The notes under the pieces: generated by a model | Seen by the model: the letters and a program-made list of their open reading frames with translations, nothing else | Told to the model about the DNA's origin: nothing | The model's database searches: none | Assembly (NCBI GenBank): GCA_019057635.1 | Contig: DXJL01000008.1 | Span: forward strand, 1-11,437 | DNA from: Candidatus Heimdallarchaeota archaeon | GTDB taxonomy: Archaea > Asgardarchaeota > Heimdallarchaeia > Hodarchaeales > Hodarchaeaceae | Reading direction: 5' to 3' | DNA length: 11,437 nt | Shown: positions 3,073 to 4,470 of the stretch, one piece after another | Position numbering within the stretch: the first letter of the stretch is position 1 | How the letters are laid out: every line of letters starts with the position of its first letter | Position numbers and translations under genes: made by a program

Positions 3073-4470
3073 TTAATTCAATATCTCCTCTAATCCCAGT
3101 ATTAATTTGTCAATATCTTCTTTTTTATGAACCTCTGTTACACAGAATAGCGCACTTTCTCTGAGATTAGGAAATTCTTTAGATAAATCTTTTCCACCAA
3201 AAATTTTCTTCTTAACTAGGAGTTCATTTATTTCTGAGACTTTTTTCGGGGTTTTATTAAAATCTACAACAAATTCTTTGAAATGAGAGGTTTGATTGAA
3301 AAGAATGTTAATCCCATCAATAGTGGATAGTCTCTTCATTGCATATTGAGATTTTTGTAAAATCAATTTTCCCAATTCCTGCATGCCTTGGGGACCTAAT
3401 AATGCTAAATATACTCCTGCTGTAATTCCCCATAAAGCTGCTGCAGTACCTATGAATTCTTTTCCTTTTTCCCTTTTACTAAAAGAGGTTCTGTCATAGG
3501 TTACATCACCAAATCCATATTCTCCTTTAACAACTGTAGGTATAATTCCGAATAATCGAGATGGATATTCCATGACAATTTTTTCTTCATCGTGAGTAGC
3601 AATAAACCCTGCGTGCCCTCCACCATATTGCATATGCATACCTAACCCCTGGATATCTCCACAAACAATATCTGCACCATAATTACTTGGAGGAGTCAAT
3701 ACTCCTAGTGATAACGGATCAGTACCCACAATACATAAAGCATCATTTTCGTGGGTGATTGATGAAATTTTAGACCCCTGGTCTTCTATACACCCAAGAT
3801 AGGAAGGATTTTCAAAATATACTCCAGCAGTCTTATTTGAAATGCTATCTTCAAGATCTCCAAGATCGATTTTTCCAGTTTCATAATCTGTTTTCATAGT
3901 TTTCATTTTTAGTAGTGGACTACAATAATTTTGAATAATTAATAGTCTATCAGGAGAAATAGTGTCTGAAACTAAAATTTCGGTACGATCAGTTATTCTA
4001 GTAGCCATCTGAATAGCTGTACTTGCTGCTTGTCCCCAATCATAAGTTGGAACATTGACTACATCCATCTCCAATAGTTCTCCCATCATGCTTGCATACT
4101 CAAATAAAGCATGAAACCGTCCATGATCTTCGTAAGGTTCACCTGCATAAGCAGTTAAAAACTCTGAGCGCTGATTAATTTCATCACAGATAGCAGGGAC
4201 ATAATGTTGCCAACAGCCTCCTCCTAGAAAACTGATGGATTCTTGACAGGTAGTATTTTTTGATAATATTCCATTTACATGTCTTTTAAGATCATATTCA
4301 GATAATAAAGGATCAGGAAGATCCATAGATCCTTTAAATCTTAAAAAATCTGGAATATCTGTATATAATTCTTCAATATCATTTATCCCGATTTCCTGCA
4401 TCATTTTTTCTTTAATCTCTGGAACTGAATTTGGGATATAGGGGTGGATGAAAGATTTTTTCGTGTTCAT
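3073..4470 (-). CDS. gcvPA: Divergent glycine dehydrogenase (decarboxylating) subunit 1-like protein
   Basis: 465 aa. Motifs HPYIPN, SFLGGGCWQHYVPA, RSEFLTAY, ENPSYLG, DPLSLGVLTPP..YGADIVCGD.Q.LG..M.YGG, LLGPQGM, HFKEFVV and CVTE. It ends 15 bp before gcvPB. GGAG lies upstream of its ATG. Confidence 0.9.
   Translation of the reverse strand: MNTKKSFIHPYIPNSVPEIKEKMMQEIGINDIEELYTDIPDFLRFKGSMDLPDPLLSEYDLKRHVNGILSKNTTCQESISFLGGGCWQHYVPAICDEINQRSEFLTAYAGEPYEDHGRFHALFEYASMMGELLEMDVVNVPTYDWGQAASTAIQMATRITDRTEILVSDTISPDRLLIIQNYCSPLLKMKTMKTDYETGKIDLGDLEDSISNKTAGVYFENPSYLGCIEDQGSKISSITHENDALCIVGTDPLSLGVLTPPSNYGADIVCGDIQGLGMHMQYGGGHAGFIATHDEEKIVMEYPSRLFGIIPTVVKGEYGFGDVTYDRTSFSKREKGKEFIGTAAALWGITAGVYLALLGPQGMQELGKLILQKSQYAMKRLSTIDGINILFNQTSHFKEFVVDFNKTPKKVSEINELLVKKKIFGGKDLSKEFPNLRESALFCVTEVHKKEDIDKLILGLEEILN

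Follow-up and report, generated by a model that had tools for sequence, protein, structure and literature searches.

Among the genes in an 11,437-nucleotide stretch of contig DXJL01000008.1 (C53) of assembly GCA_019057635.1, from a Candidatus Heimdallarchaeota archaeon (Hodarchaeaceae), is a pair resembling the alpha and beta subunits (GcvPA and GcvPB) of glycine decarboxylase, the glycine cleavage system's P-protein. We refer to the whole stretch as the window. The pair is a paralogue and not the cell's P-protein, and we think it probable (roughly 0.6), judging from sequence comparison, that it is a neofunctionalised two-subunit enzyme, a pyridoxal phosphate (PLP)-dependent decarboxylase or cleavage enzyme that acts on a substrate other than glycine and is coupled to short-chain dehydrogenases (SDRs). 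It is reasonable to infer, as a preliminary description of this DNA had held, that the substrate differs from glycine; any particular chemistry that might be proposed for the pair is at best doubtful.

Results

Four conserved segments of the alpha subunit are replaced

The alpha subunit gene is free of internal stops and its product scores 500.8 bits on the curated GcvPA model (NF001696, EC 1.4.4.2; cut-off 364), with a match that runs from position 2 to position 446 of the 447 in the profile. The preliminary description reported that four motifs within it had been replaced, and all four strings are present where it placed them, segment 4 ending at 3495 and not at 3497 (Table 1). The consensus motifs against which they were set are also correct: (Y)TPYQ(P/A)E(V/I)(S/A)QG, NAS(M/L)(Y/L)D(G/E), PGR(L/M/I)V and REQ(Y/H)IRR(A/D)KA(K/T)SNI(T/C)T are carried by the enzymes of Thermus thermophilus (1WYT_A), human (6I33) and Synechocystis (4LGL), and canonical-type motifs (TSYTPYAPEVSQG, NSSMYDF, PGRIIG and TREQHIRRERATSNICT) by the second GcvPA of the same genome. 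None of these three solved and characterised P-proteins carries the variants.

Table 1. Coordinates of the features described in the window, grouped by subject.
Feature	Position	Strand	Description	Basis
GcvPA-like alpha subunit	3073..4470	-	465 aa; non-canonical P-protein-like clade	NF001696, PF02347, tree
Alpha segment 1	4120..4155	-	TAYAGEPYEDHG, residues 106-117; canonical TAYTPYQPE(I/V)SQG; second Tyr deleted	
Alpha segment 2	4036..4056	-	NVPTYDW, residues 139-145; canonical N(A/S)S(M/L)YDG	
Alpha segment 3	3547..3564	-	PSRLFG, residues 303-308; canonical PGR(I/L)(V/I)G	
Alpha segment 4	3445..3495	-	DRTSFSKREKGKEFIGT, residues 326-342; canonical TREQHIRR(E/D)KATSNICT	
GcvPB-like beta subunit	1492..3057	-	521 aa	NF003346, alignment to 1WYT_B
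SDR1	4506..5327	-	classical short-chain dehydrogenase; first gene of minus-strand operon	profile matches
Kinase-like partner	321..1448	-	NAD-kinase/diacylglycerol-kinase superfamily, 375 aa, GGDGT motif	PF01513, PF20143
SDR2	5454..6206	+	second short-chain dehydrogenase, divergent from operon here	profile matches
Divergent intergenic region	5328..5453	.	126 bases, AT-rich, between the two SDR genes	sequence

To place the replacements, we aligned 79 orthologues (the window's protein together with those from 78 out of 80 related loci) with 73 canonical and 17 further non-canonical representatives. The canonical set was drawn from the 150 best representatives at 50% identity by keeping lengths of 425–490 aa and leaving out P0140, P0151 and P0242, whose motif regions are garbled. 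Segment 1 of the window reads YAG-EPYEDHG, TP being changed to AG, and the second tyrosine, present in 73/73 canonical representatives, is a gap in 79/79 orthologues. In segment 4 the E, Q, H, I, A, T, S, N and C of the canonical string are all replaced, SNIC becoming E(F/W)(V/I)G in the paralogue, and only the arginines R327 and R333 are retained. Replacement residues found in all 79 orthologues include G110, E111, D115, P141 (Ser to Pro in segment 2), S304 (Gly to Ser in segment 3), T328, S329, F330, E338 and G341, and the window follows the 79-member consensus, TAY(A)G-EPY(E/D)DHGRF and R-T-S-F..R..G-K-E-(F/W)-(V/I)-G-T. Seventy-six positions of the window fall in columns that are at least 85% conserved among canonical sequences; 49 of these are the same and 27 differ in the window's group, 26 of the 27 lying within residues 104–120, 138–152, 283–309 and 322–348, about 18% of the protein. 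The scaffold is kept and the protein is of full length, as first described, with 49/76 conserved positions unchanged. Across the 79 orthologues the replacement residues are as conserved as the canonical residues that they displace, and replacements so clustered and so conserved therefore argue for a change of function under selection, and for neither decay nor chance.

Position of the changed residues

Motifs were tied to published residue numbers through sequence alignments to 1WYT, 6I33 and 4LGL; for 6I33, adding 43 to the chain index gives the human numbering, which was verified on Lys754. The active-site assignments come from PMC10185560, PMC4767401 and PMC7259800, two of which use homology models. 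Human Y161 and Y164, which belong to the YTPY motif, are assigned to the class 'Active Site', and Q366 and R373 are put under 'H-interface', with R373 and K376 predicted to form salt bridges to the H-protein in a docking model (PMC7259800). Human Q366, I381, C382 and A389, all in the LQTREQ...SNIC...A segment, are listed near the active-site pocket, with Q366 in the lipoamide channel, and these residues are placed near the pocket, in a mobile loop or in that channel (PMC4767401). Synechocystis C353, which by our count in the alignment is the Cys of SNICT, is described as 'in the active site' (PMC10185560, citing Hasse 2013), and Arg321, Arg326 and Arg327 of the Escherichia coli enzyme are put on a closed loop near the entrance (PMC10185560).

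The equivalent of Y164 is deleted in the paralogue and those of Y161, R368 and R374 are retained. In the entrance loop, neither the canonical nor the non-canonical clade varies at R327 or R333. At the positions of human R373 and K376 the window has K332 and K335, and the 79 orthologues have mainly K (24), D (16) or V (12) at the first and E (48), Q (12) or K (9) at the second, the interface itself being that of the docking model. By the residue roles published for the human and Synechocystis enzymes, segments 1 and 4 lie at the catalytic pocket and its entrance (active site, lipoamide channel or H interface). The earlier statement that alpha-subunit segments help to form the active site is thus supported for two of the four motifs, segments 1 and 4 (PMC7259800 and PMC4767401).

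The beta subunit

The beta subunit likewise passes the curated GcvPB cut-off (NF003346, 557.3 bits against 441) and keeps the PLP lysine, within an NLHKTF motif aligned to the same motif in 1WYT_B, together with the His and Asp. We compared 74 paralogue beta subunits with 15 canonical ones, a small and skewed set of 11 Asgard sequences and 4 from other phyla. Of the columns conserved in the canonical sequences, 97 are identical and 47 differ in the paralogue, the latter including loops beside the catalytic residues; GAHGE becomes GSQAI, PDSAHGTNPA becomes TIFSHPSDAA, NPNTLG becomes NPEDTG and YDGAN becomes YDQAN. The window's own subunit has GQGTCTMK, QPA(S/G)GSQAI, FSHPSDAA, NPEDTG and YDQAN, which are the majority residues among the 74, and conserved acidic residues are lost (E162 to I, D189 to I/V). 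Since the beta subunit retains the PLP Lys, His and Asp while the neighbouring loops have changed, the alpha/beta enzyme is very likely still a PLP catalyst, with its substrate side rebuilt.

A separate clade beside the canonical enzyme

On contig C69 the source genome (3.19 Mb, 91.6% complete) carries a canonical gcvPA/PB pair whose motifs are normal. Its GcvPA scores 550.2 bits, compared with 500.8 for the alpha subunit of the window, and the two are 36% identical. One GcvT and one true GcvH are also encoded on C69, a second true GcvH on C173 and a dihydrolipoyl dehydrogenase, over its cut-off, on C133; both true H-proteins carry the ESVKA lipoyl motif. Five further paralogue-bearing genomes (Bathyarchaeota, Aminiphilus, Chloroflexia, Aminicenantes and Massilia) all possess a canonical GcvPA or a single-chain GcvP, and in four of the five the canonical copy adjoins gcvH.

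The closest relatives of the window's proteins are found in Heimdallarchaeota/Hodarchaeales metagenome-assembled genomes, and orthologues 51–94% identical occur across Asgard archaea, Bathyarchaeia, Chloroflexota, Synergistota, Actinomycetota and Proteobacteria. Within 151 sampled Asgard genomes, 16 have an orthologue of at least 64% identity, including 4/7 of the window's genus, and the gene is therefore accessory and patchy. The family comprises 197 confirmed places in contigs from one genome per species, with at least 17 further clusters at 50% identity, and its cultured carriers include Massilia, Pseudoduganella and Nonomuraea. In NCBI the orthologues are named glycine dehydrogenase subunit 1 or GcvPA, as is every named cluster member, and no description of the clade was found in the literature searched, a search whose reach excluded most subscription journals.

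An unrooted FastTree phylogeny of 117 alpha subunits (that of the window, 26 proteins picked from the 78 loci to span their taxonomic range, the 17 other non-canonical and the 73 canonical representatives) splits the 73 canonical from the 44 non-canonical sequences with 100% Shimodaira–Hasegawa (SH)-like support. The groups had been sorted by motif, so the tree was recomputed after deleting the 76 columns of the motif segments, and the split was still supported at 99%. The orthologue group of the window's protein has Asgard sequences interleaved with those of Aminicenantes, Desulfobacterales, Bacillota, Chloroflexota, Synergistota, Actinomycetota and Proteobacteria, and this interleaving, in an unrooted tree, suggests transfer of the paralogue between domains of life. 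The conservation of the variant residues in two domains of life, the canonical copy in 6/6 genomes and the separate clade together bear out the preliminary description in its view that the subunit was remodelled in a directed manner and has not decayed.

Gene neighbourhood

On the minus strand of the window the genes run in the order SDR1, alpha, beta and kinase-like, with intergenic gaps of 35, 15 and 43 bases. We retrieved 80 related loci with 6 kb on either side where the contig allowed, of which the 78 with an alpha subunit gene were used for neighbour counts. The beta subunit gene is present in 76 of these, at least one SDR gene in 62, the kinase-like gene in 55 and all three in 48. An SDR1 homologue lies near the alpha subunit gene in 57/78 loci and an SDR2 homologue in 39/78; SDR2 is divergent in the window, unlike in most relatives, where it is co-directional with the operon. 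The kinase-like gene is absent from several fully flanked loci (for example L017, L020, L039, L067 and L070) and a Massilia group is without SDR genes, the alpha–beta pair alone being obligatory. When three queries each for GcvH and GcvT were searched by tblastn, the 80 related loci and the window gave no match to either gene, and all three positive-control loci were matched.

Outside this core the flanks are lineage-specific, with GntR/FCD or LysR regulators, amino-acid permeases, NhaC-type carriers and family-1, -3 or -5 binding proteins, and the flanking genes beyond the five-gene core showed no convergence on one substrate among the related loci. In one Heimdall lineage (loci L006, L010, L011, L013, L040, L046, L048, L049, L055 and others) PAP2-family phosphatase genes stand just upstream of the operon in 9 loci, and in 11 the kinase-like gene is followed by one for a conserved protein of 316 aa that matches neither Pfam nor NCBIfam.

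A sister non-canonical subfamily, represented by loci L091 and L092 from two Asgard genomes (48–50% identity), has alpha, beta and kinase-like genes and an alpha-subunit loop reading TAYTGDVY(S/T)DLGRY. Here the SDRs are replaced by a homologue of the 2,4-diaminopentanoate dehydrogenase Ord, which at 232.9 bits falls below the cut-off of 400, and the flanks hold an AsnC regulator, an EamA carrier, a branched-chain-type ATP-binding cassette (ABC) system and an aldehyde:ferredoxin oxidoreductase. Genes for this last enzyme lie near three non-canonical loci (L020, L091 and L092), and an ornithine-cyclodeaminase-family gene lies near L067.

In the window itself, the region between the two SDR genes is a possible control region. 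It contains an imperfect inverted repeat, TATTATTATTAA / TTAAGAATAATA, at 5337–5362, which could be a putative regulator site or an AT-rich chance occurrence. A PadR-family regulator and two MsbA-like half-transporter ABC (exporter) genes adjoin the operon at 6511–10991; because homologues of the regulator and of an ABC gene adjoin it in no relatives but the nearest two, L008 and L012, they are probably outside the conserved module. The G+C content of the window is approximately 36–40%.

The kinase-like partner and H-proteins

The last gene of the operon encodes a protein with the N- and C-terminal NAD_kinase domains of Pfam and no naming model in NCBIfam. In its predicted structure (predicted local distance difference test score, pLDDT, 92) the N-terminal ~210 residues alone match kinases, with Z-scores of 11.1 for DgkB and 10.4 for NADK, and 9.6–11.1 overall for diacylglycerol, NAD and sphingosine kinases. 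Foldseek with this model returned weak matches (template modelling scores, TM, 0.22–0.36), no sequence relative was found in the PDB, and the Atlas matches are exclusively to 'ATP-NAD kinase family' clusters. AcoX, an NAD-kinase-like protein of acetoin-cleavage operons, is encoded alongside an enzyme that uses a lipoyl carrier; the partner in the window is likewise NAD-kinase-like and stands beside a type of enzyme that normally uses such a carrier, but differs in its lack of a naming NCBIfam model and of a PDB sequence relative, and in being kinase-like over its N-terminal ~210 residues only.

The partner family occurs in 120/151 Asgard genomes and GcvPA-like proteins in 118/151; of the 20 genomes listed as lacking a GcvPA match, 12 recur among the 20 listed as lacking a kinase-like match. 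The copy in the window is the sole member of its family found in the source genome. By comparison of coordinates it adjoins the paralogue in 15 of the 16 orthologue-bearing Asgard genomes and lies 30 kb away in the sixteenth. Distant members, 32–47% identical, stand beside canonical gcvPA/PB in seven loci (L094, L096, L107, L108, L110, L111 and L112), six of them with a GcvH or GcvT gene confirmed nearby, and beside gcvH alone in L117 and L120. The partner is therefore not specific to the paralogue, and its family may be an unrecognised companion of P- and H-protein systems. The members beside canonical gcvPA/PB or gcvH are often found amid pterin and one-carbon (C1) genes (such as MptE-like, F420-ligase-like, a pterin-binding protein, Fae/Hps and FTHFS), and in one relative the kinase-like gene beside the paralogue (G135:C1:4502-5617) has a single in-frame TGA. 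We considered the partner as a substitute for a missing L-protein and rejected this for the source genome, where the dihydrolipoyl dehydrogenase is present.

We also considered an extra H-protein in paralogue-bearing genomes, which is unsupported within the genus: G107, in which the paralogue was not found, has 4 H-protein matches, and G000 and G120 have 3 each. Two further proteins of the source genome, of 265–271 aa (L089, 1483–2280, minus strand; L090, 1030–1845, plus strand), combine an N-terminus resembling a response-regulator receiver with a GcvH-like domain that is without the usual ESVKA lipoyl-lysine motif. At L086 (40–1179, minus strand; 1474–1860, plus strand) a true H-protein gene of the source genome adjoins a gene for an HdrC/TfrB/GlpC-like iron-sulfur (CCG-type) protein and not glycine-cleavage genes, a pairing that hints at a heterodisulfide-reductase-type use of a lipoyl protein.

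Discussion

The nearest characterised system is the GcvPA/GcvPB glycine decarboxylase (EC 1.4.4.2; T. thermophilus 1WYT/1WYU/1WYV), which has the same alpha/beta architecture and subunit lengths and is the best PDB match for both subunits of the window (E-values 1e-62 and 1e-85). The pair shares with it the conserved alpha-subunit scaffold and the catalytic residues of the beta subunit, and passes its NCBIfam cut-offs, but differs in the active-site and entrance loops of both subunits, in its clade and in coexisting with a canonical copy. It is linked to SDRs and the kinase-like gene, and in the 80 loci never to gcvT or gcvH.

The substrate would be an amino compound with a side chain. Four positions of the predicted pocket are smaller, Thr to Ala, Pro to Gly, the deleted Tyr and Cys to Gly, and would give a side chain room; new conserved acidic residues (alpha D115, alpha E/D338 and beta D240) may also point away from glycine. 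With low certainty, we picture the co-encoded dehydrogenase oxidising a side-chain hydroxyl to a ketone (in the sister subfamily, an amino group to a ketone), after which the P-like enzyme would decarboxylate the keto-amino acid or cleave a carbon–carbon bond in it. It is because alcohol-type and amine-type dehydrogenases pair with the respective subfamilies that a side-chain carbonyl made or consumed next to the PLP step is suggested. Threonine dehydrogenase with 2-amino-3-ketobutyrate coenzyme A ligase, and Ord with 2-amino-4-ketopentanoate thiolase, are known pairings of a dehydrogenase with PLP-dependent carbon–carbon cleavage. The neighbourhood logic of the window is the same, with a ketone-making dehydrogenase next to a PLP enzyme, but this is an analogy and not membership: the PLP enzyme in the window has the P-protein fold, not that of an alpha-oxoamine synthase or OrtAB.

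Several observations weigh against neofunctionalisation coupled to SDRs. Both subunits exceed the NCBI curated cut-offs for GcvPA and GcvPB, and by overall similarity they could therefore still have the old function. The SDRs are missing from some of the 78 loci, as is the kinase-like gene, and in three closely related Anaerolineales loci (L022, L023 and L025; for example L025 3719–5929) an MttB-type (demethylase) methyltransferase gene lies directly upstream of the alpha subunit gene on the same strand, with a corrinoid protein gene in two of the three. The canonical beta subunits used for comparison are few and mostly from Asgard archaea, and the size and charge of the pocket are deduced from sequence. 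Finally, the association of the partner family with canonical gcvPA/PB in seven loci and with gcvH in two could mean that the paralogue still works with a lipoyl H-protein, or even on glycine.

An unlikely alternative is H-protein-dependent cleavage of another amino acid, in which decarboxylation would transfer an aminoalkyl group to the lipoyl H-protein, the adduct would release an aldehyde and ammonia, and the SDRs, or aldehyde:ferredoxin oxidoreductase, would process the aldehyde. The general linkage of the kinase-like family to P- and H-protein genes is the chief reason to suppose that a lipoyl carrier may still serve the paralogue; this alternative is also favoured by the aldehyde:ferredoxin oxidoreductase genes near L020, L091 and L092 and by the two entrance-loop arginines, R327 and R333, which both clades keep unchanged. 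Against a lipoyl carrier speaks the loss, in most orthologues, of the other basic residues in that loop, at which the H-protein is predicted to dock; the 80 loci have no linked H gene, and the chemistry is conjecture.

Still less probable is that the pair remains a glycine decarboxylase, a second isozyme that uses one of the genome's H-proteins and serves, for example, under other conditions or in the glycine-synthase direction. Such an isozyme would account for the scores above both cut-offs and for the catalytic Lys, His and Asp being retained; the genome offers it two true H-proteins, each with an ESVKA motif, the kinase-like family also accompanies canonical gcvPA/PB and gcvH, and the MttB and corrinoid genes upstream in three Anaerolineales loci fit as well. 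It must contend, however, with the replacement or deletion of residues that 73/73 canonical sequences and all three solved enzymes share, among them the second Tyr of YTPY, classed as active site, and with the absence of gcvT and gcvH from the 80 related loci; moreover, the predicted basic residues of the H interface are not conserved, and the number of H genes in the genus does not track the presence of the paralogue (G107, G000 and G120, above).

From the acidic replacements the preliminary description had speculated that a cationic substrate might be favoured, for instance a diamine or a basic amino acid. A reading in which such a compound, or a diamino acid, is simply decarboxylated or transaminated is to be thought similarly improbable. 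E111, E/D114 and D115 are each present in 79/79 orthologues, D115 also in 14/17 of the other non-canonical sequences; E338 is found in 79/79, with D or E in 16/17 of the others, and the beta subunit adds D240. The Ord-like diamino-acid dehydrogenase homologue beside the sister subfamily and the ornithine-cyclodeaminase-family gene near L067 would suit such a substrate. The loss of acidic residues from the beta subunit (E162 to I, D189 to I/V) nevertheless leaves the net charge ambiguous, the SDRs that accompany the pair in the window suggest hydroxyl or keto groups, and many different types of transporter are found near the operon. That the gene is a decaying or non-catalytic duplicate, for which the loss of family-invariant motifs might speak, is hardly credible given the intact reading frame, 51–94% identity across archaea and bacteria, invariant replacement residues, kept beta-subunit catalytic residues and conserved operon.

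The neofunctionalised paralogue is thus the reading that we prefer. A wider version of it is rather unlikely as a whole: that the clade is a widespread second P-protein enzyme with a new chemistry, that the kinase-like family is a general companion of P- and H-proteins, and that the two belong to an undescribed amino-compound pathway in Asgard archaea and many bacteria. The candidate chemistry would then be PLP-dependent cleavage or decarboxylation of side-chain keto-amino acids supplied by the neighbouring dehydrogenases.

Because annotation labels the paralogue a P-protein, reconstructions of metabolism in Asgard archaea, and in many bacteria of sediments and soils, count as glycine cleavage a function that is probably something else, or count glycine cleavage twice. 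The family is large, tightly conserved and present in cultured, tractable bacteria, which makes an uncharacterised PLP reaction and its pathway directly testable, and the link of the kinase-like partner to P- and H-protein genes offers a second lead. If the wider version is true, an undescribed pathway for an amino compound would lie hidden under the label 'glycine cleavage'.

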